Part shown: in pieces, positions 6,207 through 43,702 of the stretch
Layout of the letters: the number at the start of each line of letters is the position of its first letter
Numbering within the stretch: position 1 is the stretch's first letter
NCBI GenBank assembly: GCA_964425075.1
Contig: CAYRKM010000002.1
Location: 64,058-128,057 of the forward strand
Source of the DNA: an uncultured Gammaproteobacteria bacterium
Lineage (GTDB): Bacteria; Patescibacteriota; Microgenomatia; Levybacterales; GWA1-39-11
DNA length: 64,000 nucleotides
Reading direction: 5' to 3'
Made by a program: the position numbers and the translations under genes
Notes under the pieces: model-generated
Databases searched by the model: none
What the model was told of the DNA's origin: nothing
Seen by the model: the letters and a program-made list of their open reading frames with translations, nothing else

Positions 6207-7660
6207 GTTTTAGATTGTAATATATTTTCCTCAATTATCATAGCGTCTTGTAATACTTTTTTAGAATTTGGCTTGTATTCCAAAAGTGGTTGAGCATTTT
6301 TCTCCCAAGAGTCAATTATCGGATCTATAAAATTCCACATTGCCTGAACTTCGTCCGTTGATACAAAGAGTAATTGGTTACCCAAAATACAATCTAAAAG
6401 TAATTTTTCATATTCTTCTACATACTGAGCGCGTTTTTTCCTTTCATCCCTATAAAGAAATGATAGGCGCTGAAGCTCCATCGAATATTCAAGCCCAGGT
6501 TTTTTTGACCAAAATTCAATTGCTATTCCTTCCCGAGGGTCAAGGGAGAATATAACTTTATTTTTAAAATGCATACCTGAAGGACAAAGGCATGGTTTAT
6601 TATGCTTAAAAGTGACTACAATCTCCTTGTTGTCGACAATCTTTTTCCCTGCCTCAATTATTATCGGAACATTTTTCCATTGAGATGATTTAAGCATTGC
6701 CACCAATTTAAAATATGTTTCTGTTTTTGAATTTTTACTAACTCCTTCCTCATTTTTATAACCCACAAACTGCGCCCGAAACGTCTTCTCGGTAACTTCA
6801 CGCATGGAAAGAGGTATCAGCTCTTCAAGAACTTTTGAACGAGCTTGCCTTACGTGTATGGGCGTCAGGTCTATGGGTTGCTCCATTGTAAGAAGAGCAA
6901 GCATCTGAAGCGCATGATTTTGCCCGACATCACGAAGAGCACCAATCCCATCATAAAATCCACCACGACTGTCAATTCCCATCTTTTCGAGAAGCCGGAT
7001 TTCTATTTTTTCTATATGCTCATTATTCCAAGTTTTTTCGAATAAATCATTCGAAAATCTAAAAGAAATAATATTTTGCATCATGTCTTTACCTAAATAA
7101 TGGTCAATTCTATAAATTTGCTCTTCCTTAAATAATTTACCCAATAATTCATCTAGTTCTTGGGCAGTATGAGCATCTTTTCCAAAAGGTTTCTCAACAA
7201 TAACCCGTGTCCATCCCTCTTCAGGACTACAGGGAAGAGTAAGACCTGATGAGTGAAGGTGTTCAAAAATGCTTTGGTAGTTACTTGGGGGAACAGCAAG
7301 ATAAAAAAGCTTGTTGGAGCAGGCTCTCCACTCATCATCCACCCGGCCTAAGTATGTTGCCATTTCGTTGTACGCATCTACTTCATCAAAATTTCCTTTT
7401 CTGTATTCAAAATATTTCAAAAAAGCATCAACATCACTTACTTTTATCCTTCTGTCTCGATTGTCTGAAAGAATTTTTCTAACATGCTCCTTGTATTCAT
7501 CCTGAGATATATCTCTTCTAGAAAATGCTATGATCTTGAAAAGATTAGGAAATTTACCACTTTTGTAGAGATGGAAGAGAGCAGGGGTAATTTTCTTGGC
7601 CATCAGATCCCCCGTGGCACCGAAAATGATAAATACTGTGGGGATATTTTTGTTTTCCAT
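6203..7660 (-). CDS. zwf: glucose-6-phosphate 1-dehydrogenase
   Basis: IFGATGDLMAKK dinucleotide motif, EKPFG, and the RIDHYLGK active-site motif. It overlaps gnd by 4 nt. Confidence 0.9.
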   Translation of the reverse strand: MENKNIPTVFIIFGATGDLMAKKITPALFHLYKSGKFPNLFKIIAFSRRDISQDEYKEHVRKILSDNRDRRIKVSDVDAFLKYFEYRKGNFDEVDAYNEMATYLGRVDDEWRACSNKLFYLAVPPSNYQSIFEHLHSSGLTLPCSPEEGWTRVIVEKPFGKDAHTAQELDELLGKLFKEEQIYRIDHYLGKDMMQNIISFRFSNDLFEKTWNNEHIEKIEIRLLEKMGIDSRGGFYDGIGALRDVGQNHALQMLALLTMEQPIDLTPIHVRQARSKVLEELIPLSMREVTEKTFRAQFVGYKNEEGVSKNSKTETYFKLVAMLKSSQWKNVPIIIEAGKKIVDNKEIVVTFKHNKPCLCPSGMHFKNKVIFSLDPREGIAIEFWSKKPGLEYSMELQRLSFLYRDERKKRAQYVEEYEKLLLDCILGNQLLFVSTDEVQAMWNFIDPIIDSWEKNAQPLLEYKPNSKKVLQDAMIIEENILQSKT

Positions 7661-7808
7661 CCGTATTCATTTTAAACAAGAACATCCCTTTATTTCAAGG
7701 AAATTTTGATATTATTATAAATACATCTAGCCAAGCATATCATTTGTGCTAAAATGTAACCTAATTTTAAGTGCTTTCTAAAAATAATGAAAATACGATT
7801 ATTACACC

Positions 7809-10800
7809 TTGAGTATTATGGAGACTTTACATTCCGGTTTTGATCATCCTCCCGTTGGTCCTGCTCCACATCCTGATTCTTCAGGTAGACCCGTCACCCA
7901 CCCACTTCCTGGCGAGCTAGATGGGGAAGGAATGCTTGATCCAACATCTTTGGATTTCTGGCGAAATCTTCATGCTAACCTTACAGGCTTTATAAGCAAG
8001 AACTATCCCTTTTCAGATTTCCTTAAGAATTTCGATAGTGAGAAAGGGAAAGTGGGTCGCACACATTCAAATGGCGATACAAACGCCACATACGCATACC
8101 TTAATGCAATTTATAAACAGCGTTCATTCTCGCATCCCGGCCATCCTACTCTTGAGCAGCATATCGTCTCGCAATTCACACCTCCTACAGATGACCCCGA
8201 CTTTGCTGAAATTGTTGAAGAAACCCGCTCTCTTATTAGACAGCGTTTTCCAGAACATCAGCTTCCTAGAACGACAAGTCTTGTCAAGCTCCAAGATCCG
8301 GAATTTTGGAGCGAATTTGAGGATGAGCTTTCAAAAACTCCTTCGAGTTCAATATTTGCGGATTTTTTAAAAGGAGGAGGTGGCCTTTCTGAAGACGGTA
8401 GTCAGATGCAGGGAAAGTATCATGATGTCTGGCTTGATATATACGATCCTCGGGGTAGAACTGAATTTAGAAATGCATATAAGGAACAAACAGGAAGAGA
8501 TATAGATACTGATTCTGCAAGAGACGCTCAGAGGATTTTCTTCGAAGTAGCACCAGCACGTATAAAAGCACAGCTTATTAAGAGATATCCGAGAATTTTT
8601 AGTGGATTTGCAGTAGAGTGGGTAGGAAATTCTCAATTACCAAAAGCTGCCCAGGCTGTCATTAACACTCTCGGGTGGTTAGGTGAAGATAACCGAAAAA
8701 AAATACTTGACGTACTTTCGAAATATGTGCATATAGAAACAAGTAGTACTTCGGGTTTTGATTTTTCTGCTGAAGATACTAGCATTATTCTTGGACAAGC
8801 AGCAGAACAATCAGAAGTTGTAGCAGCAGAAGTTGGTCCGCCAACACTCGAAACTATTATTCGAGACGCAACTAATACTTTTCAGCTTGTTGAACAAGAA
8901 AAGTTGGATAATGGGAATTCTGAAAATGAACAACTGTCAAGTGAGCTAACAGCTGCCCTTGAAACATCCTATCTTTACCCAACACTTCGTAATGTTTTAT
9001 ATAAACCTTTCGCACTTTTTTGGTCAAAATATCTGGAGACTCATGGTGGGTCCTCTGTTCCCGAAGATGAAATGAGAAGTTTTCTTGACACATATGCACA
9101 TAATGAAATTGCTCAAACATCTCTATCGCCCGAAGAGCAGCAAATGCTTGAGCGTCTTAAAAAAAATGTTTTTTCCACTATTTTTAGTGAATTTATAGAA
9201 ATTGCAAATTACTCTTCTCAAATTAATCACTTCAGGGAAAGAAGCATCGACGGGAAAGCAAAGCATCTGTTTTTTCATCAGGTTGAGGGAATTAAGCATC
9301 TTGTCGAAAAAGGCGCCGGAATTTTAGCTGATGAACCAGGAACCGGCAAAACAGTGACCCTTGCGCTCGCAGCATTAAATCGAGTTGACCAAAAATTTCG
9401 AGAACCTGGAAAAATAGCAAGGGTGCTAGTTGTTGGATCAAAAACTGTTAATAACAACTGGGAGGAAGAACTTGAAATGCATGTTGCGCCAGGTGATGTC
9501 GATACAGTAAATTTCAATTCTGACGAACTTGCACAGTTAAGCCAGGCAAAACGCCTTGAAATAATGGCACAAAGATTGAAAAATCCTACAGCGGATAGAC
9601 AAGTTTTGCTTGTCAATTACGATCTGTTTCGCAATTCATTTTTTCAGGAACTCCTTCATTCTGCAGGAATTGACTGTACAATAATTGATGAAGCTCATAA
9701 TGTAAAATCGCGTTTTATGGATTCTATTGCTGAGCATAACGACGACACGTCCCATAATGCTCGACTTGCAAAACGCACAACAAATCTTTATAGATTTCTT
9801 CTTTCCAACCCGAATATGGATGTTTATTTGGGTACTAGCACTCCCTTCGTCAAAGAATTAATAGAGCCGCTTATCATGGGTCACCTGGTCGATAGGTGGA
9901 GTCTTCCAATTGACCGGGTTTCAGCTTTAAGGGAGGATCCTGCTGGAGCAAATTTGGCACTTCGTGAAGTAATGATTCGGCGACGAAAGGATGCAATCAG
10001 CGATATCCCCCCAAAAGACACAGACTTTATACCAGTAGACTTAAGCCTACTTAGTGCTGCGGAACGCTCGGAGCTTGTTTCATTGGGCCTTGATATAGAA
10101 AGAGCCGATGAAAGCTCTTTCAGAAGATTTTTTTCCATGTTGTCTATTGAAGCTCAAGCAAAAATGCCCTGGCTTATTGAGAAAATAAACGAGTTAACAT
10201 CTGATGGAAGAAAGGTAGTTGTTTTTACTCCATTCGTTAATGACCAGGAAAGACTTACAGCCTCAATAAGTACGAAGGCTATTGCAAAGCGACTTATTGA
10301 TTCAGGAATTACCTCTGTTGGAGTTCTTGATGGAACTTTAAGTGAAAGCGAAAAACTTGCTGTTCAAAGAGATTTTCATGACCCGAATGGGGTAAGAGTT
10401 TTGGTAGGTAATTATCAAACGGCAGGCGAATCAATTACACTTAATTCGCCTTTCAATAGAGCAACTGAAGTAATTATACTCGTTGCACCAAACACAATAA
10501 GTAGATACATTCAAGCAATTGATAGAGTGCATAGAATCGGACAAGATGAGAAGGTTACTATTCACGTGCCTTTTCTTACGGAAGACCCTATCGCAAGGCC
10601 AGACGGAACATATGACAGACGAATTGTTAGTCGAATGCTTAGAGAACTTTCACTCTTTAATGCTGTTGTAGATGGTTTATTTTTTGTTGAAGCTGCAGAT
10701 TATTACGATGAAATTAGACGGGGAAAAAACGGAAACTCAGAACCAAGAACCGCTCTTGAAAGTGGACAAACAGTTCGTTTGGATACAGAACAGAAGCCTC

Positions 10801-15893: not shown

Positions 15894-16114
15894 GTCGGGG
15901 ATAAAGCAAGTTTGTCCCCTTCTTCATTTCATTCAGTCGGGGATAAGGAAACCTTGTCCCCACCAAATTCTTCGAGTTTGTCGGGGATAGAGGACTCGTT
16001 CTGTGAAACAGCCTGCAAGACAATCCGACCTGCCGAAGGCAATAATGTCGGGGATAGAGGACTCGTTCTGTGAAACAGTCTGCAAGACAATCCGACCTGC
16101 CGAAGGCAATAATG
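15894..16114 (-). repeat. tandem truncated tRNA-Pro-derived repeats downstream of tRNA-Pro
   Basis: GTCGGGGATA recurs starting at 15894, 15936, 15980, 16047 and 16114. The last copy is the true tRNA 3' end. The two 67-nt units (15980-16046, 16047-16113) differ at 1 nt and carry 19 nt of the tRNA T-arm/acceptor 3' side. Confidence 0.85.
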
Positions 16115-16187
16115 TCGGGGATAGAGGACTCGAACCTCCGACCTCACGGTCCCAAACCGCGCGCTCTACCAACTGAGCTAATCCCCG
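16115..16187 (-). tRNA. tRNA-Pro (TGG)
   Basis: Hand-folded. Acceptor CGGGGAT/ATCCCCG, anticodon loop TTTGGGA, T-loop TTCGAGT. Confidence 0.9.
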
Positions 16188-19530: not shown

Positions 19531-19628
19531 GAACTCGCAAAGTGAACGAAACTAAAGTGCCTGCGCTGAATGAAGCTGAAGTGCTTGCACTGAGTGAAGC
19601 TGAAGTGCTTGCACTGAGTGAAGCGAAG
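19531..19628 (-). repeat. tRNA-trailer tandem repeats (24-nt unit with AGTGCWWGCACT box)
   Basis: Units GAAGTGCTTGCACTGAGTGAAGCT at 19578-19601 and 19602-19624. A variant unit sits at 19554-19577 and a degenerate unit at 19531-19553. The array abuts the 3' end of tRNA-Ala. Confidence 0.85.
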
Positions 19629-19699
19629 TGGACCCGAGGGGAATTGAACCCCTCCCTCATCCATGCCATGGATGCATTCTACCGATGAACTACGGGCCC
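19629..19699 (-). tRNA. tRNA-Ala (GGC)
   Basis: Hand-folded. Acceptor GGGCCCG with the G3:U70 identity pair, anticodon arm CATCC-ATGGCAT-GGATG, T-loop TTCAATT. Confidence 0.9.
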
Positions 19700-19735: not shown

Positions 19736-19800
19736 GAAGTGCCTGTGCTGAGGAACGTAAAGACGAAGTGCCTGCACTGAGAAACGTAAAGACGAAGTGC
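19736..19800 (-). repeat. 29-nt tandem repeat (2.2 copies) of the same box family, upstream of tRNA-Ala
   Basis: GAAGTGCCTGTGCTGAGGAACGTAAAGAC (19736-19764) and GAAGTGCCTGCACTGAGAAACGTAAAGAC (19765-19793), then GAAGTGC. Confidence 0.8.
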
Positions 19801-19806
19801 TACAAT

Positions 19807-21018
19807 ATGGCTACTATGCACATACCCCTCGCTGAAAAATTACGACCTCTAACTTTGGATGATTTCGTGGGGCAGGAACATTTAGTTGGAAAAGGTAAAC
19901 CTATCAGAAGGATGATTGAAACTGGAAATATAACCTCAATGATGTTCTGGGGACCTCCAGGATGTGGCAAAACAACACTTGCAACTGTAATTGCAAATTC
20001 TCTGGACGCTGAGTTTGTCTTCTTCTCCGCTGTAACAAGTGGGGTAGAGGACGTAAGAAAAGTTATAAAGCACGCTTCAACTGTCCGTGAACAGGAAAAT
20101 AAAAAAACCATTCTTTTTGTTGACGAAATTCATAGGTTTAATAAATCGCAACAAGATGCTTTTTTACCTCACGTAGAAAATGGGACGATAATTTTAATTG
20201 GTGCTACAACAGAAAACCCTGGATTCCGAATAAATGCACCTCTATTGTCTCGTAGTCAGCTATTTGTTCTTAAGCCTTTAACTAACGAGAATATTGAGCA
20301 AGTAGTAAAAAGAGCTGTTTCCTTTTTTCCAAAACATTCAATAGAGAATGAGGCCGTTGAGCATATTACGCGTATGTCAAATGGGGACGCCAGATTTGCA
20401 ATTAACGCGATAGAAGTTGCTACGTCTTTGGCTAAAAAAATTACTTTAAAAGTGGTTGAAGAGGCTATGCAAAAAAGAGCTGTGTACTATGACAAAAAGG
20501 GGGATTATCATTACGACACAATTTCAGCCTTTATAAAATCCATGCGTGGAGGAGATCCTGACGCAACTCTTCATTATCTTGCCCGCATGCTAAAAGCAGG
20601 AGAAGACCCGATGTTTATAGCCAGACGTATGGTAATATTTGCCTCAGAAGACATAGGAAACGCTCAGCCAACAGCACTTGTGCTTGCAACAAGCGCAATG
20701 CAGGCGGTACATATGATAGGACTTCCCGAGGCACAACTTATTCTTGCCCAAACCGCAACGTATCTTTCAACGGCTCAGAAATCTATCGCTTCAACTATAG
20801 GAATAAGTGAGGCTATGCAAGACGTTGAGATAGATAATCTACCAGAAATTCCACTTCACTTAAGAAATGCCGCAAATAAAGTCATGAAGAATTTGAATTA
20901 TGGAAAAGGACATGTGAGATACGCCTGGAAGGAAGAAAGAGAAACAGGAAAAAAGGTTAACCAAGACTATTTACCAGATAAGCTTAAGGGCAAGAAGTAC
21001 TACAAACGCGATTGGTAA
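19807..21018 (+). CDS. rarA: replication-associated recombination protein A (AAA+ ATPase RarA/MgsA)
   Basis: LAEKLRP, Walker A GPPGCGKTT, Walker B LFVDEIHRF, and the conserved C-terminal MgsA block DPDATLHYLARML. I use the ATG at 19807 because the track start at 19768 lies inside the repeat array. Confidence 0.85.
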   Translation: MATMHIPLAEKLRPLTLDDFVGQEHLVGKGKPIRRMIETGNITSMMFWGPPGCGKTTLATVIANSLDAEFVFFSAVTSGVEDVRKVIKHASTVREQENKKTILFVDEIHRFNKSQQDAFLPHVENGTIILIGATTENPGFRINAPLLSRSQLFVLKPLTNENIEQVVKRAVSFFPKHSIENEAVEHITRMSNGDARFAINAIEVATSLAKKITLKVVEEAMQKRAVYYDKKGDYHYDTISAFIKSMRGGDPDATLHYLARMLKAGEDPMFIARRMVIFASEDIGNAQPTALVLATSAMQAVHMIGLPEAQLILAQTATYLSTAQKSIASTIGISEAMQDVEIDNLPEIPLHLRNAANKVMKNLNYGKGHVRYAWKEERETGKKVNQDYLPDKLKGKKYYKRDW

Positions 21019-21679: not shown

Positions 21680-21754
21680 TTTGCCTGCACTGAACAAAGC
21701 TGAATGTGCTTGCACTGAACAAAGCTGAATGTGCTTGCACTGAGTGAAACGAAG
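21680..21754 (-). repeat. tRNA-trailer tandem repeats (three 25-nt units)
   Basis: Units at 21680-21704, 21705-21729 and 21730-21754 (TGTGCTTGCACTGAACAAAGCTGAA and variants). The array abuts the 3' end of tRNA-Leu(TAA). Confidence 0.85.
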
Positions 21755-33210: not shown

Positions 33211-33987
33211 CTAATACATACCACTGACATCACAATTTGTACCAGAAATGGGGGAACTGGTATTCCCTAAGAGCGAAAGGAATTCTGATCGAATTGGTTG
33301 GACAAATTGGTCATATGGACATACAGCTTGCTTGTCTACAAAAATACCAAAGTCAAAGTTGTGTGCGGAAGGAGTACCCGTAGTTGTTCCAATTTGTTGA
33401 CCAGCTTTTACATATATATTGTTTTTTGGTCTTGCATCCCTATCATCAAAGCCGGATCCGGGTTTTAACTCAAGTGGTTCAGATATTGGCTTTTGAGATG
33501 TGATCTCGTCAATTGGATCCGTAATATGGTTTATTCGATACATCGTATGGCAATCCACGAAGAAAACAAGGTCATAATCTGGTTTTGACAAATCTGATGA
33601 TAAATCTGCTCGCGTTTTATAAAAAATTTGTACTAACACCCCATCTGCTGGAGCAAATACTGGTATGCTTTGCCTATTTTTTATCCAAAGGTAAGTAAAG
33701 CGTGCGTCTCCAACCAACTTCCCTGGAGAGATAACGCGAATTGAGCTTGCAGTAGTAACTGCCGAAGTGAATGCACCATTCGCAGTGGATCGTGGCGCAT
33801 CAATTATTCCATAATCTGTTGAACAAGTATTCTGACTACTATCCGAATCATTTGAGGTTCCATATTTACCATCCTGGTTAGCTTTATTTTGATTATTTAC
33901 CTGTTTGTAAATATTGTTATACAGCGCCCCTCCAACCAATACCAAAACTACTATTCCTAAAGCAACAAATAAGAGTTTCCTATTCAT
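33211..33987 (-). CDS. hypothetical secreted protein (possible degenerate M23/LytM-like C-terminus)
   Basis: I use the ATG at 33987 (MNRKLLFVALGIVVLVLV...). VKAGQQIGTTTGTPSAHNFDFGIFV resembles the M23 G..IG..G.TG...HLHF block, but the catalytic residues are changed. Confidence 0.5.
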   Translation of the reverse strand: MNRKLLFVALGIVVLVLVGGALYNNIYKQVNNQNKANQDGKYGTSNDSDSSQNTCSTDYGIIDAPRSTANGAFTSAVTTASSIRVISPGKLVGDARFTYLWIKNRQSIPVFAPADGVLVQIFYKTRADLSSDLSKPDYDLVFFVDCHTMYRINHITDPIDEITSQKPISEPLELKPGSGFDDRDARPKNNIYVKAGQQIGTTTGTPSAHNFDFGIFVDKQAVCPYDQFVQPIRSEFLSLLGNTSSPISGTNCDVSGMY

Positions 33988-34128
33988 TTTTATATATTTT
34001 TTTTCAAGTTTTAGTATTACATCCTCCCAAAAAATAATCAATATGTACAAGGCTAGCGGTTAGAATTAAACAGAGCTTAAGGTGTTTTCAAAGAATTGTC
34101 GAGGCTAAAATAAGAGCAAAAACCCTTG

Positions 34129-34199
34129 CTGCCGGTCCTGGATTCGAACCAGAATAAACGGATCCAAAGTCCGTTGTCCTACCGTTAGACGAACCGGCA
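34129..34199 (-). tRNA. tRNA-Gln (TTG)
   Basis: Hand-folded. U1:A72 acceptor, anticodon arm ACGGA-CTTTGGA-TCCGT, T-loop TTCGAAT. Confidence 0.9.
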
Positions 34200-34345
34200 A
34201 AAAATAAACTCGGGCAAATCACTTCACCAGAGCCTACCAATTATATACCTGTTTTGGGATATTTTCACCTTTTGCAAAGCAAAATCGAAATCTTTTTAAG
34301 ACAAAAGTCGTGCTCTTTTTGAAGGAAAAGTTCTATGACTAAGAA

Positions 34346-34786
34346 TTATTCGCGAGTATACAAACCCAATAGTTCGGCTTTATCGATTACATGATGCTCC
34401 ATCATCTCTTCCAATTCCTGCCTAGTGATATCCTCATTTGCATCAAGCATTGTGTTAAGAGCATAAAGTCTGAAAAAATACCTATGTGGACCAGTTGGAG
34501 GACAGGGACCCCCATATCCAGCATGTCCAAAATCAGTTACGCCCTCAACACTGTCTTCAGGAACAGAATCCTCCCCAATTCCTCGGGTATGCGGATCTAT
34601 ATTAAAAACAACCCAATGAACCCAAACTTTACCAGGAGCATCAGGATCATCAACTATAAGAACAAGACTTTGGGCATCTTCTGGTACATCCTGAAACACT
34701 AACGGAGGATTTATGTCCTCTCCATCGCATGTATATTGAGTTGGAATGTTTTGGTTATGTGTAAAAGCTGGACTTGTTATTCTCAC
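34346..34786 (-). CDS. YbhB/YbcL-family PEBP (Raf-kinase-inhibitor-like) protein
   Basis: DDPDAP, HWVVFNI and GYGGPCPPTGPHRYFFRLYAL signatures. GTG start. Confidence 0.85.
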   Translation of the reverse strand: MRITSPAFTHNQNIPTQYTCDGEDINPPLVFQDVPEDAQSLVLIVDDPDAPGKVWVHWVVFNIDPHTRGIGEDSVPEDSVEGVTDFGHAGYGGPCPPTGPHRYFFRLYALNTMLDANEDITRQELEEMMEHHVIDKAELLGLYTRE

Positions 34787-34854
34787 ATATTAACTCTACC
34801 AAAAGAGTTAAATAGACACAATAATATAATTTTGGTAGAATATGTAACACGTTT

Positions 34855-34938
34855 GGGCTTGTGCTGAAATTGGTATACAGGCATGCTTGAGGTGCATGTG
34901 TCAGTAATGGCGTGGAGGTTCGAGTCCTCTCAGGCCCA
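34855..34938 (+). tRNA. tRNA-Leu (GAG)
   Basis: Hand-folded class II tRNA. Anticodon arm CATGC-TTGAGGT-GCATG, long variable arm, T-loop TTCGAGT. Confidence 0.9.
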
Positions 34939-34975
34939 CACAGAAAGGTTTGGATAGGACTCGGATTTTGTCAAA

Positions 34976-35029
34976 GAGTCCTCTCAGGCCCACTTCGTCC
35001 GCCTACCGGCGGACTCAGTGCGGGCACTT
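34976..35029 (+). repeat. displaced duplicate of the tRNA-Leu(GAG) 3' end carrying the CTTC...AGTGCGGGCACT trailer
   Basis: The 17 nt GAGTCCTCTCAGGCCCA at 34976-34992 equals 34922-34938, and the trailer-family sequence follows it. A 5'-end fragment TTTGGGCTTGTCCTGA at 35056-35071 matches 34852-34867 at 15 of 16 positions. Confidence 0.8.
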
Positions 35030-35089
35030 TTATAAATATAGAATAGGTTTTCCTTTTTGGGCTTGTCCTGAGAAGGCAAAGCCGACGAA

Positions 35090-35162
35090 GGGCGATTAGC
35101 TCAGTTGGTAGAGCGCTTCGTTTACACCGAAGATGTCAGGGGTTCGAGCCCTCTATCGCCCA
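35090..35162 (+). tRNA. tRNA-Val (TAC)
   Basis: Hand-folded. Acceptor GGGCGAT/ATCGCCC, anticodon arm CTTCG-TTTACAC-CGAAG, T-loop TTCGAGC. Confidence 0.9.
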
Positions 35163-35186
35163 CAAAGATATGACCAAGTGAGATTT

Positions 35187-35259
35187 GCCAAGATTGCCAA
35201 GTTGGTCAAGGCGCGTGTCTGAAGAACACGTTATCCGGGTTCGATTCCTGGTCTTGGCA
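35187..35259 (+). tRNA. tRNA-Phe (GAA)
   Basis: Hand-folded. Acceptor GCCAAGA/TCTTGGC, anticodon arm CGTGT-CTGAAGA-ACACG, T-loop TTCGATT. Confidence 0.85.
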
Positions 35260-35264
35260 CAAAA

Positions 35265-35519
35265 ATGCAATATTTTGTGTACATTCTTGAATGCAGTGAT
35301 GGTTCGCTTTATACAGGCTATACAACTGATATAGAGCGAAGGGTGAAAGAGCACAACAAAGGAAAGAGCGGAGCTAAGTCTGTACGAGGGAAATTACCTG
35401 CCGAATTAGTTTACTCCGAAACCTTTGTAACTCTTTCAGAGGCATTGAAACGAGAAGCTGAAATCAAAAGTTGGAAGAGATACGAAAAACAAATGTTAAT
35501 AGCGACGAAGCGGGCGTAA
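35265..35519 (+). CDS. GIY-YIG nuclease-superfamily protein (stand-alone URI domain)
   Basis: 84 aa. YVYILECSDGSLYTGYTTDIERRVKEHN is the canonical GIY-YIG block. It starts 6 nt after tRNA-Phe. Confidence 0.85.
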   Translation: MQYFVYILECSDGSLYTGYTTDIERRVKEHNKGKSGAKSVRGKLPAELVYSETFVTLSEALKREAEIKSWKRYEKQMLIATKRA

Positions 35520-35567
35520 GAACCTTTCAATTTCATTGAAAGAACCTTGACCCCGCTCACTACGTTC

Positions 35568-35639
35568 GCGGGGGTAGTTCAGTGGTAGAACGCTTCCTTG
35601 CCAAGGAAGAGGTCGCCGGTTCGAATCCGGTTCCCCGCT
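35568..35639 (+). tRNA. tRNA-Gly (GCC)
   Basis: Hand-folded. Acceptor GCGGGGG/TCCCCGC, anticodon arm CTTCC-TTGCCAA-GGAAG, T-loop TTCGAAT. Confidence 0.9.
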
Positions 35640-35668
35640 CATAAACGATTTCTTTAGTACCTCAAAAC

Positions 35669-36076
35669 CTACATTGCAGCCAAAACTGCACCCATCAAAA
35701 CCAATGTTACCAATTGATAACTTGCATTTATCCAATACAAATTCAATGATTTTCCCTCATAAAGAACTGAGCTAATCATGATTGTTGCAACAAATCCAAG
35801 CCACACCCAAAATCCAACTATAGCACCGCTCATTATGTCCATTGCACCCGCAAATGAAATAATGTTTGAGAGAACATAGGCAGTAATTATAGAGGCAACA
35901 GCTTGTACTCCATAAATCATTGGCATATTAGTCTTTGAACCATTCATTTTTTTTCGACTTATACCAGTTAACTTCATCCATTGTTTACCAAATCCAGCTG
36001 GAGAGTACCAAAAAGTTCCAAGCGCCATAGCAATCACTGCAGAAATAATAACAGCAACCCAATTTGTGTCCATCAT
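35669..36076 (-). CDS. DUF1761-family membrane protein
   Basis: 135 aa, 4 TM helices. The N-terminal WVAVIISAVIAMALGTFWYSP..FGKQW is typical of DUF1761. Confidence 0.65.
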   Translation of the reverse strand: MMDTNWVAVIISAVIAMALGTFWYSPAGFGKQWMKLTGISRKKMNGSKTNMPMIYGVQAVASIITAYVLSNIISFAGAMDIMSGAIVGFWVWLGFVATIMISSVLYEGKSLNLYWINASYQLVTLVLMGAVLAAM

Positions 36077-36207
36077 ATAACTTCACCTCCCCTCACATTT
36101 CAGATACTTTTAAAGTATCACCATAAGAGTTATGAAGTCAAATGCCTAAAACATGAGTAGATACTTCAATTTATGTTAAAAAACAATAACTCTGATATAA
36201 TGCTGCA

Positions 36208-36699
36208 ATGACTGAATTTGACCCTAAAAGAACTGGACCTGACCAAACTCCGCACTCACTTACACCAGAAAAGGTGAAAAGACTATTACCTCAAGGCGAT
36301 AGATTTAGATTTGTGAGTGAAGTTTTAGAGTATGAACCAGGGAAGCGGATCCTTGCAAGATTGGCAGATTTGGAAGGGCCTGAATTTGACTACCTAAAGG
36401 ATCACATGCCCGGAAACCCATTTATTCCAGGAACCATTCTCCAAGAAGCACTGGAACAAGCAGGAAGTTTGATTATAGCTGACTCTATTCCAGAAAATAG
36501 TTTTGCATTTCTCCGAGGAATTGATAAGTTTAGATGGTATGGATTTGTTGGGCTCGATGAGGAAGTGCTACTTGAAGCCAAAATAATCACGTTGAGATCC
36601 AATGCCGGGAAGGCTTCGCTAACAGCAACGAGGAGTGGTGAAATTGTGGCTTCAGGGCGAGTAATATTTGGTATTGGAGAAAAACCTCAGCTTGCTTAA
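36208..36699 (+). CDS. FabZ/FabA-like hotdog-fold dehydratase
   Basis: LPQGDRFRFVSEV and DHMPGNPFIPGTILQEALEQAG match the FabZ active-site region pattern (H...P..PG....E). TGATATAAT ends 6 nt before the ATG. Confidence 0.7.
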   Translation: MTEFDPKRTGPDQTPHSLTPEKVKRLLPQGDRFRFVSEVLEYEPGKRILARLADLEGPEFDYLKDHMPGNPFIPGTILQEALEQAGSLIIADSIPENSFAFLRGIDKFRWYGFVGLDEEVLLEAKIITLRSNAGKASLTATRSGEIVASGRVIFGIGEKPQLA

Positions 36700-37350: not shown

Positions 37351-37491
37351 GATGTGCCTGCACTGTGCAAGAAGTGTTACGTTGTGAAACAAAGTCTCGA
37401 AGTGCTTTCATCGATCAAGAAGTGCTTGCGCTGAACGAAATGGAAGCCTGCACTGAATGAAGTTGAGGTGCTTGCACTGAACGTAGTGAAG
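37351..37491 (-). repeat. tRNA-trailer repeat array downstream of tRNA-Leu(CAG)
   Basis: On the minus strand it reads CTTCACTACGTTCAGTGCAAGCACCTCAACTTCATTCAGTGCAGGC..., with 4-5 boxes of the AGTGCWWGCACT family that degenerate with distance. Confidence 0.8.
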
Positions 37492-39253: not shown

Positions 39254-39352
39254 CTTCACTACGTTCAGTGCAAGCACCTCAACTTCATTCAGTGCAGGCT
39301 TCCATTTCGTTCAGTGCAAGTACTTCGGGGCCTTGTTTCTCAGCGCTTGCAC
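39254..39352 (+). repeat. tRNA-trailer repeat array downstream of tRNA-Leu(TAG)
   Basis: The first 72 nt (39254-39325) match the reverse complement of 37420-37491 at all but 2 positions. Four boxes of the AGTGCWWGCACT family are present. Confidence 0.85.
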
Positions 39353-43299: not shown

Positions 43300-43451
43300 T
43301 TGGTTCAGTTGGTTGCGATGAATTCATTCATCGAGCGATGTTAGAAGTGTGGAGTTGTAACTCAGTTGGGGTTCGACTTTTGAAAAATGGACTCATAAGC
43401 AGAGTTTGCTTTTTGTTTTCGAAAAGTAGCTCAGTTGGTTACATTTTGTGT
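43300..43451 (+). repeat. tRNA-fragment debris (D-arm-like pieces) upstream of tRNA-Val(GAC)
   Basis: CAGTTGG-containing D-arm-like strings at about 43302-43315, 43358-43377 (with GGTTCGAC) and 43427-43441. The last, TAGCTCAGTTGGTTA, is identical to 43459-43473 inside the tRNA. Confidence 0.7.
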
Positions 43452-43525
43452 GGACGATTAGCTCAGTTGGTTAGAGCGTTGCATTGACATTGCAAAGGTC
43501 ACAAGTTCGAATCTTGTATCGTCCA
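43452..43525 (+). tRNA. tRNA-Val (GAC)
   Basis: Hand-folded. Acceptor GGACGAT/ATCGTCC, anticodon arm TTGCA-TTGACAT-TGCAA, T-loop TTCGAAT. The flanks 43442-43451 and 43525-43534 extend the acceptor helix to 17 bp. Confidence 0.9.
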
Positions 43526-43534
43526 CACAAAATG

Positions 43535-43623
43535 CGCTGAAGCGTTGCATTGACATTGCAGAGGCCAGAGAAGGAATTTCATTAATGAAATTCGACTGTC
43601 GTCAGCGAATCCTCTTGGGTCCA
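43535..43623 (+). pseudogene. decayed tRNA-Val-like remnant
   Basis: 20 nt at 43541-43560 are identical to the anticodon arm at 43475-43494. The remnant ends in ...GGGTCCA directly followed by the CTTCACTTCGTTCAGTGCA trailer. No intact T-arm or acceptor is present. Confidence 0.45.
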
Positions 43624-43690
43624 CTTCACTTCGTTCAGTGCAGGCACTTCAGTTTCGTTCAGCACGGGTACTTCGTTACACTCAGCACAG
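43624..43690 (+). repeat. tRNA-trailer repeat array
   Basis: CTTCACTTCGTTCAGTGCAGGCACTTCAGTTTCGTTCAGCACGGGTACTTCGTTACACTCAGCACAGACAC, i.e. three progressively degenerate units. Confidence 0.8.
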
Positions 43691-43702
43691 ACACATTTTC
43701 CC

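Follow-up and report, generated by a model that had tools for sequence, protein, structure and literature searches.

The window analysed here, the whole stretch of 64,000 nucleotides, has a G+C content of 37.8% and contains 14 tRNA genes, in none of which the CCA end is encoded. In the cluster described below, tRNA-Leu(GAG) (34855-34938), tRNA-Val(TAC) (35090-35162), tRNA-Phe(GAA) (35187-35259) and tRNA-Gly(GCC) (35568-35639) all lie on the plus strand and were called by both Rfam and ARAGORN, and an 84-aa open reading frame of the GIY-YIG (UPF0213) type (35265-35519, plus strand) is embedded between the last two. Genes for a PBP, a DUF1761 protein and a FabA-like protein neighbour the cluster. 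A promoter-like site, TAGACA-17 nt-TAGAAT with a TG extension (34813-34841, plus strand), lies 13 nt upstream of tRNA-Leu and was the sole such site on the plus strand between 34700 and 35750; in the same interval the GIY-YIG frame had no promoter-like site of its own and no terminator-like site was found in the cluster. With one promoter-like site in front and nothing resembling a terminator inside, the region probably forms a single transcription unit, running from the promoter through tRNA-Leu(GAG), tRNA-Val, tRNA-Phe and the GIY-YIG mRNA to tRNA-Gly. The GIY-YIG gene would then be co-transcribed with the cluster, and its mRNA would be freed by the RNase Z and RNase P cuts that excise the neighbouring tRNAs.

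A preliminary description of this region had reported displaced tRNA end-fragments in the cluster, and we found all of its elements, at or within 1-2 nt of where it had placed them. The tRNA-Leu(GAG) gene is intact (Rfam 48.4 bits), and an exact repeat of its end, GAGTCCTCTCAGGCCCAC, occurs at 34922-34939 and again at 34976-34993 on the plus strand. The second copy consists of the 17 terminal nt of the tRNA and the C that follows them, so the exact repeat is 18 nt and not 17 nt as first described. Between the two lies a 37-nt insert (34939-34975, plus strand) holding GGTTTGGATAGGACTC, which pairs with the tRNA 3'-end sequence. As had been proposed, the insert is capable of pairing; it can do so with either copy of the tRNA-Leu end (inverted repeats I12 and I14), and insert and second copy together fold at -17.9 kcal/mol, with a modest z-score of -1.9. 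The insert is unique within the window and among all fetched loci, and with the 18-nt copy it makes up one 54-nt unit of the tRNA-linked repeat (TLR) type discussed below. The sequence CTTCGTCC..ACTCAGTGCGGGCACT follows the second copy and not the first, and likewise CTTCGTCCGCCTACCGGCGGACTCAGTGCGGGCAC stands directly 3' of the second copy alone; the family trailer is therefore carried by the displaced end and not by the functional one, as originally noticed. The same layout of tRNA-Leu, insert and copy was found in three independent assemblies (L112, L113 and L114), which excludes an assembly artefact. An intron in the T-loop of tRNA-Leu was also considered and is unneeded, since the first copy already completes a normal tRNA.

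The trailer after the second copy (34991-35028, plus strand) folds into the hairpin CACU-UC-GUCCGCC/GGCGGAC-UC-AGUG followed by CGGGCAC (z -3.1), and this hairpin begins within the last nucleotides of the tRNA-end copy. Farther downstream, at 35056-35071 (plus strand), a copy of the tRNA-Leu leader TTT and first 13 nt is identical to 34852-34867 at 15 of 16 positions (direct repeat D4), in agreement with the first reading of the locus. Overlapping it is a leader hairpin, GUCCU-GA-...-GA-AGGGC (35066-35093, plus strand; inverted repeat I15), whose 3' strand coincides with nt 1-4 of tRNA-Val and whose GACGAAG is complementary to CTTCGTC in the Leu trailer. A generic search for GA-tandem hairpins was abandoned as unspecific: its 10 matches, against 3.6 ± 2.0 expected, were not clearly enriched, and it missed the real instance.

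Directly before tRNA-Gly(GCC), CCCCGCT+CACTACGTTC occupies 35551-35567. It had been read as a tRNA-Gly 3' end plus 10 nt of the trailer motif, and of these two matches the first extends over 9 nt (CCCCGCTCA, 35551-35559) and the second over 11 nt (TCACTACGTTC, 35557-35567, plus strand). The latter is identical to the start of the trailer of tRNA-Leu(CAG)/tRNA-Leu(TAG) and also to the tRNA-Arg trailer in L110, a contig of the Candidate Phyla Radiation (CPR). In addition, GCGGGCGTAA at the end of the GIY-YIG frame (35510-35519) pairs with CCCCGCTCA to form a hairpin like a collapsed tRNA-Gly (35509-35559, plus strand; inverted repeat I1); the pairing of CCCCGCT with AGCGGG at the end of the frame gives -19.4 kcal/mol and z -4.65, and none of 200 shuffles folded as well.

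Fragments at other tRNA genes and the trailer family

The preliminary description called for a search for other duplicates of tRNA ends, and within the window they were found at tRNA-Pro, tRNA-Val(GAC) and tRNA-Gly(TCC). Counting as own-sequence copies only exact sense-strand matches of at least 12 nt within 300 nt of a tRNA, we detected five fragments at 3 of the 14 tRNAs and none in 30 shuffles of the flanks. At tRNA-Pro (16114-16187, minus strand) the gene is followed by two 67-nt units (15979-16113), and the tandem repeat as a whole spans 2.3 units with 98% identity (15979-16132, minus strand). The terminus of each unit is the last 18 nt of the tRNA plus CA, and beyond the units lies a small hairpin, GGGGACAAGGTTTCCTTATCCCC-GAC (z -3.0). 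A CRISPR-like reading of these repeats was rejected, the two "spacers" being identical at 46 of 47 positions. At tRNA-Val(GAC) (fragments within 43427-43622, plus strand) a D-arm copy lies upstream and an exact 20-nt copy of the anticodon arm downstream, and farther downstream a different tRNA-like 3' end bears the family trailer. About 50 nt downstream of tRNA-Gly(TCC) is CTTATCCCGCTCA, a copy that folds no better than shuffled sequences (z -0.36); the relative L021 has a similar copy after tRNA-Gly(GCC).

Rfam returned tRNAs only, whether the whole window was scanned with the gathering threshold or the interval 33500-36500 with hits allowed up to E 1. A BLAST search of the 37-nt and 47-nt inserts and the spacers against the window and the fetched loci gave no further copies, and a dispersed element of the MITE kind was dropped because the inserts have no other copies.

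The trailer itself belongs to a family. The 16-mer motif of the preliminary description has 7 matches in the window at up to 3 mismatches (0.17 expected), and a looser pattern has 15 (0.54 expected), of which 13 follow a same-strand tRNA at a distance of 11-133 nt; at several sites the trailer is repeated in tandem, with units of 23-30 nt. We collected instances after tRNA-Leu and tRNA-Phe in L018 and in L019, after tRNA-Phe in L112, after tRNA-Gln in L063 and after tRNA-Arg and tRNA-Phe in L021, besides the window's Leu copy. An outer helix (G)CACU/AGUG(C), beginning in the last 3-4 nt of the tRNA, encloses an inner stem whose sequence is different in every instance. When nine trailers of relatives were folded one by one, the z-scores ranged from -1.6 to -6.9 and eight of the nine took the fold of outer helix and inner stem, the same as that of the window's Leu-copy trailer. 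Single-sequence folds replaced an attempt with MAFFT and RNAalifold, which aligned the outer helix alone because the inner stems are not homologous. Our literature search on tRNA trailers of CPR bacteria found no description of this hairpin motif.

The cluster in relatives

Contigs of relatives were fetched via GIY-YIG proteins that exactly match or are related to that of the window. In all sampled lineages (L018, L019/L020 and L022-L024; n=3), whose GIY-YIG proteins are 70-73% identical to the window protein, the order tRNA-Phe, GIY-YIG, tRNA-Gly(GCC) is kept, and a DUF1761 gene is close by in most of them. In L018 and L019, tRNA-Leu(GAG) and tRNA-Val(TAC) are also present upstream, the trailer stands directly after tRNA-Leu(GAG), the 54-nt unit is absent and the Leu-Val spacer measures 77 nt versus 151 nt in the window; the 54-nt block is therefore derived. 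Strain L112 is 98% identical to the window over 34222-35260 and has the Leu unit unchanged.

Differences of another kind are seen at tRNA-Phe. In L018, L019 and L112 a family trailer of 41-47 nt follows this gene (46-47 nt in L018/L019), versus only 5 nt in the window; in L112 it occupies the place where the window has the start of the GIY-YIG frame, and that contig ends 41 nt after tRNA-Phe. The window has lost the family trailer at this position. Its tRNA-Phe has T9/T16, and those of L001, L018 and L019 have the canonical A9/G16. Starting at roughly position 17 of tRNA-Phe, contig L001 is identical to the window (99.87% over 2278 nt), and upstream of tRNA-Phe it carries an unrelated ORF with no homologue in the window or the relatives and no Pfam domain, although this contig was built from a k-mer (de Bruijn) graph and may be a chimera fused at the conserved tRNA. 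Between Val and Phe the window has a spacer of 23 nt, L018 one of 916 nt with one gene and L019 one of 2.6 kb with two genes. tRNA boundaries are thus where the window and its relatives differ, the strain-level breakpoints at tRNA-Phe resting on short metagenomic contigs. Pfam scans revealed no integrase domain in the variable Val-Phe genes of the relatives and none in the genes adjoining the cluster. A contig search with the FabA-like neighbour gave distant matches only (23-35% identity, Acidobacteriota and others) and no orthologous loci, and an exact search with the DUF1761 neighbour had no match besides L001.

At the other boundary of the GIY-YIG gene, the stop codon of the L018 frame lies within the 5' end of tRNA-Gly, so that the last codons are the first 10 nt of the tRNA (..CGCACGCGGGCGTAG). 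The window frame ends in ..ACGAAGCGGGCGTAA, and GCGGGCGTAA, a relic of the tRNA-Gly 5' end, is 48 nt apart from the real tRNA-Gly. One interpretation is that the hairpin before tRNA-Gly represents a collapsed upstream copy of the gene, retaining its 5' strand, its 3' strand and the start of its trailer, and that the working tRNA-Gly would be the downstream copy.

Origin of the tRNA-end repeats

Repeats of this form have been described in E. coli. [quoted passage not shown] The 178-bp repeats of tyrT/tyrV and RttR go back to Egan & Landy 1978 and Rudd 1999, as cited in PMC8144298. We checked E. coli tyrV and found a 178-nt unit three times downstream, the last copy overlapping the final 19 nt of the tRNA.

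The Leu unit (34939-34993) and the Pro units (15979-16113, minus strand) agree with the E. coli TLRs in lying directly downstream of a tRNA in the same orientation, in occurring as one to several tandem units (one at Leu, two at Pro) and in sharing ~18-20 nt with the tRNA end, the identity being exact in both (17 nt + 1 for Leu, 18 nt + 2 for Pro). They differ in size (54 and 67 nt versus ~100-180 nt in E. coli) and in folding into hairpins against their own tRNA-end copy; moreover, the window also holds 5'-end and anticodon-arm fragments and its host is probably a member of the Patescibacteria (CPR). Rfam, which holds an RtT model, found no similarity beyond tRNAs. Since position and end identity agree and a relationship in Rfam is absent, the Leu and Pro units, judged by sequence, can be classed as the same kind of feature as TLRs, now in a new lineage, but do not belong to the sequence family of E. 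coli. In that species such repeats have been on record since 1978 without an accepted origin or general function; that a reduced and distantly related CPR genome has repeats built alike suggests that they reflect something general about the ends of tRNA genes rather than an enterobacterial oddity. The window repeats offer compact, sequence-diverse cases for asking whether such repeats are mutational scars or processing signals.

How did the repeats arise? We lean towards a model in which local duplications took the tRNA end as their anchor, deletions came next, and the remnants able to form hairpins persisted. Short local duplications would have been anchored on the T-arm and the acceptor 3' end of the tRNA, and internal deletions would have come after them. 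At tRNA-Leu a duplicated block would have been added between the tRNA and its ancestral trailer; an insertion at this point would leave the family trailer with the distal copy, as observed. The upstream copy at tRNA-Gly would instead have collapsed into a hairpin. The remnants that persist would be those that fold into hairpins resembling the acceptor/T-arm helix; as processing sites, such hairpins would be tolerated in the precursor RNA or might even be of use there. The comparison with L018, L019 and L112 supports the suggestion that tRNA ends have undergone insertion, deletion or duplication and that the fragments are the record of it. There is no signature of a mobile element, the inserts being single-copy and no integrase being detected. 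The 37-nt insert is unlike the trailer, so a simple tandem duplication of the tRNA end plus trailer fails as an explanation, and this weighs against local duplication in its simplest form. The second copy is identical at 18 of 18 positions with unrelated flanks, which needs a recent event, gene conversion or selection. The ability to form hairpins hints at function and weighs against neutral scarring, the clearest case being the Gly-like hairpin (z -4.65).

A rival view is that the tRNA-end hairpins and the trailer are not scars at all but selected RNA signals. They would act as minihelix-like decoys of RNase P, RNase Z or the CCA-adding enzyme or be cleaved by them, or they would be hairpins for termination or insulation. 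We consider it unlikely, though it is compatible with local duplication and the two are not exclusive. The z-scores of the insert with its copy, the Gly-like hairpin and the Pro-distal hairpin (-1.9, -4.65 and -3.0) point in this direction, as does the trailer architecture, which recurs in other CPR lineages with an inner stem that varies from case to case; and in E. coli, TLR repeats have been proposed as sites of RNase E, with three of the repeats being sRNAs (PMC8144298). However, the Leu unit lacks conservation, being missing from L018 and L019, its hairpin has a modest z-score, and the copy at tRNA-Gly(TCC) has a z-score of only -0.36.

A direct repeat of the 3' part of a tRNA, whose displaced copy keeps the native downstream sequence, is also the classical geometry of att sites. 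The repeats could accordingly be attL/attR scars of integrase insertion at T-loop or anticodon-loop sites, from which the elements were almost wholly deleted. The blocks of identity indeed extend in the 3' direction from a start in the T-loop for Leu and Pro and in the anticodon stem for Val-GAC, the native trailer stays with the displaced copy, and the gene content beside the tRNAs varies, as the Val-Phe spacers of 23 nt, 916 nt and 2.6 kb and the unrelated ORF of L001 illustrate. Against this, just 37, 47 or 15 nt separate the repeats, and neither an integrase nor cargo was found in the 37-47 nt between repeats or nearby, including the adjacent and variable genes scanned with Pfam. The two tRNA-Pro inserts are nearly identical and tandem, unlike what att-site duplications leave, and the inserts have no other copies. 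An origin from att sites therefore seems improbable to us, and we retain local duplication as the preferred reading.

The GIY-YIG gene beside tRNA genes

Counted from the Rfam end of tRNA-Phe (35259), the GIY-YIG frame begins 5 nt downstream; the preliminary description was right about the 84-aa frame and gave the distance as 6 nt. Pfam assigned residues 2-73 to PF01541 with 65.7 bits against a cut-off of 22.6 (E 4.9e-18), so that the catalytic domain covers nearly all of the protein, and found neither a second domain nor a DNA-binding domain. The protein matches the UPF0213 structures PDB 1ZG2 (BH0048; E 1.5e-20) and 1YWL (E 2.1e-15), and Y6, Y16, R26, H30 and E64, residues of the catalytic type, are invariant across the family and present in the window protein. 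NCBIfam gave no named family for it, and its closest named homologues are from Candidatus Levybacteria, the Patescibacteria group and Candidatus Paceibacterota, which is why the genome is taken as a probable CPR member. UPF0213 proteins belong to the YhbQ/YazA/SLX1 URI-domain family (PMC7017083); our literature search on UPF0213/YhbQ function found nothing relevant. The window protein resembles the nucleases of this family in being a single GIY-YIG domain within ~80-100 aa, and it differs from UPF0213 nucleases generally in that its gene is embedded in a tRNA operon. It also differs from eukaryotic SLX1 in being without a partner protein or zinc finger (PMC7017083).

Homologues also neighbour other tRNA genes. 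In L021 a homologue lies between tRNA-Arg(CCG) and tRNA-Ala(CGC), with Phe and Gly adjacent to each other and no GIY-YIG gene between them; in L110 one lies between tRNA-Arg(GCG) and tRNA-Ser(CGA), and in L108 one lies 145 nt after tRNA-Gln(TTG). Among 80 metagenome loci of the wider family, nine have a tRNA at most 300 nt upstream, versus ~0.8 expected from the tRNA density of the loci, and ~89% have none. Eight of these nine fall into a single subfamily with mutual identities of 66-82% and are therefore not independent events. On the strength of gene neighbourhoods, the link between UPF0213 and tRNA genes is recurrent in CPR-like lineages and not a property of the whole family. The preliminary description had reasoned that a protein grouping with UPF0213-type proteins unlinked to tRNA loci would count against its proposal of a nuclease acting at tRNA ends: the protein does group with UPF0213, but its CPR homologues are repeatedly linked to tRNAs (Arg/Ala, Arg/Ser, Gln). 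A methyltransferase with an NPPY motif, found beside some family members, fell below every NCBIfam cut-off and was left unnamed. The repeated placement of UPF0213 genes beside tRNA genes in CPR contigs provides a modest functional lead for a widespread family.

The stable position of the gene and the occurrence of fragments at distant tRNAs argue against its protein as the agent, and the data fit a gene that is an old resident of the tRNA neighbourhood and not the creator of the fragments. A more speculative idea, to which we give little credence, is that CPR bacteria use an undescribed set of RNA signals, comprising the trailer hairpin, its reverse GA/GA relative in the leader and the tRNA-end mimics, on whose hairpins the UPF0213 nuclease would act as a structure-specific enzyme at the RNA or DNA level. 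As for the arrangement of these components, the trailer has its start within the tRNA, in its final nucleotides, and finishes with a motif of the CAGUGC type, and the GA/GA relative precedes the next gene.

The nuclease had also been put forward, speculatively, as a candidate agent or passenger of the rearrangements. As an agent it would cut tRNA-gene ends or trailer hairpins in a homing-like or SegB-like manner and leave the fragments as repair products; despite homologues in different CPR tRNA clusters (Arg/Ala in L021, Arg/Ser in L110, Gln in L108 and eight metagenome loci), this is very improbable, because the 84-aa UPF0213-type protein is a single catalytic domain with no targeting or DNA-binding module, is encoded once in the window, keeps the same slot in three lineages with proteins 70-73% identical, mostly lacks a nearby tRNA in the wider family, and cannot readily account for the fragments at Pro, Gly(TCC) and Val(GAC), which lie at distances of 8-21 kb. 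Seg proteins are larger, have DNA-binding regions and are variably present. T4 SegB, a GIY-YIG homing endonuclease acting in a tRNA gene region according to PMC13096335, is a precedent in that it too is encoded among tRNA genes, whereas the window protein is the catalytic domain only and the position of its gene is conserved.

Trailer units 3′ of tRNAs

The tRNA trailer family, a recurrent hairpin motif found 3′ of tRNAs, is conserved across CPR lineages. In the window it lies at 19543-19630, 21682-21743 and 37400-37490 on the minus strand and at 39255-39345 and 43622-43694 on the plus strand; beyond the window we found it in the relatives L018 and L019, the 98% identical strain L112, the CPR contigs L021 and L110, and L063. 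The motif has the form C(T/A)TTC(G), followed by an optional inner stem and TCAGTGC(A/G)(A/G)GCA. Its outer helix begins within the last nucleotides of the tRNA, and each unit is closed by ..GCA, resembling a tRNA 3′ end. Tandem arrays are frequent, with units of 23-30 nt.

Two trailer-type units of 29-30 nt were also seen upstream of tRNA-Ala with no tRNA ahead of them (19736-19800), and read on the + strand the same two units are GA/GA-type hairpins preceding a 416-aa ORF (19768-21018). On L021, tRNA-Phe and tRNA-Gly are neighbours without a GIY-YIG gene between them, and the 114-nt spacer (7726-7839) consists of three trailer hairpins in tandem, of the CTGAA..TTCAGTA type.

Leader hairpins and genes upstream of GIY-YIG

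The leader hairpin has the form YCCYGA-(stem-loop)-GARGGR, contains tandem G·A pairs and has a closing helix that covaries (UCCU/AGGG, CCCC/GGGG, CUCC/GGAG); its layout is that of the trailer hairpin reverse-complemented. It was observed in the window (35066-35093), in L018 (4868-4897), in L021 (about 6290-6352), after the GIY-YIG gene of L110, and ahead of the GIY-YIG genes of L025, L036, L043, L047, L063 and L079. Two placements were seen: directly 5′ of an operon-internal tRNA, whose first nucleotides form the 3′ strand of the hairpin, and 10-25 nt ahead of GIY-YIG start codons.

In 6 of the 80 UPF0213 loci from metagenomes (L060, 4209-4973, and five others), a small NPPY methyltransferase gene (PF05175) lies upstream of the GIY-YIG gene, at a gap of 28 nt. 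Its matches to TrmN and PrmC were weak and under the cut-offs; the arrangement recalls the yabB-yazA gene pair of B. subtilis.

Differences and repeats next to tRNAs

When tRNA-Phe of the window (35187-35211) was compared with L001 (725-749), a contig matching from about position 17 of this tRNA onward, all three differences were confined to its first 25 nt. The window and L112 carry T9 and T16, L001, L018 and L019 carry A9 and G16, and the T9/T16 changes give rise to a direct repeat, TTGCCAAG, shared with the leader. For four 98%-strain contigs (L112, L114, L115, L116), the match to the window ends at 34222, 22 nt before tRNA-Gln(TTG) begins, and this position is a further breakpoint adjoining a tRNA.

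The tRNA-Val(GAC) gene lies between the two arms of an inverted repeat, 10 nt long and perfect (CATTTTGTGT / ACACAAAATG; 43442-43536); pairing of these arms would lengthen the acceptor stem of the precursor by 10 bp. Fragments of an apparent older tRNA-Val copy lie on either side of the gene.
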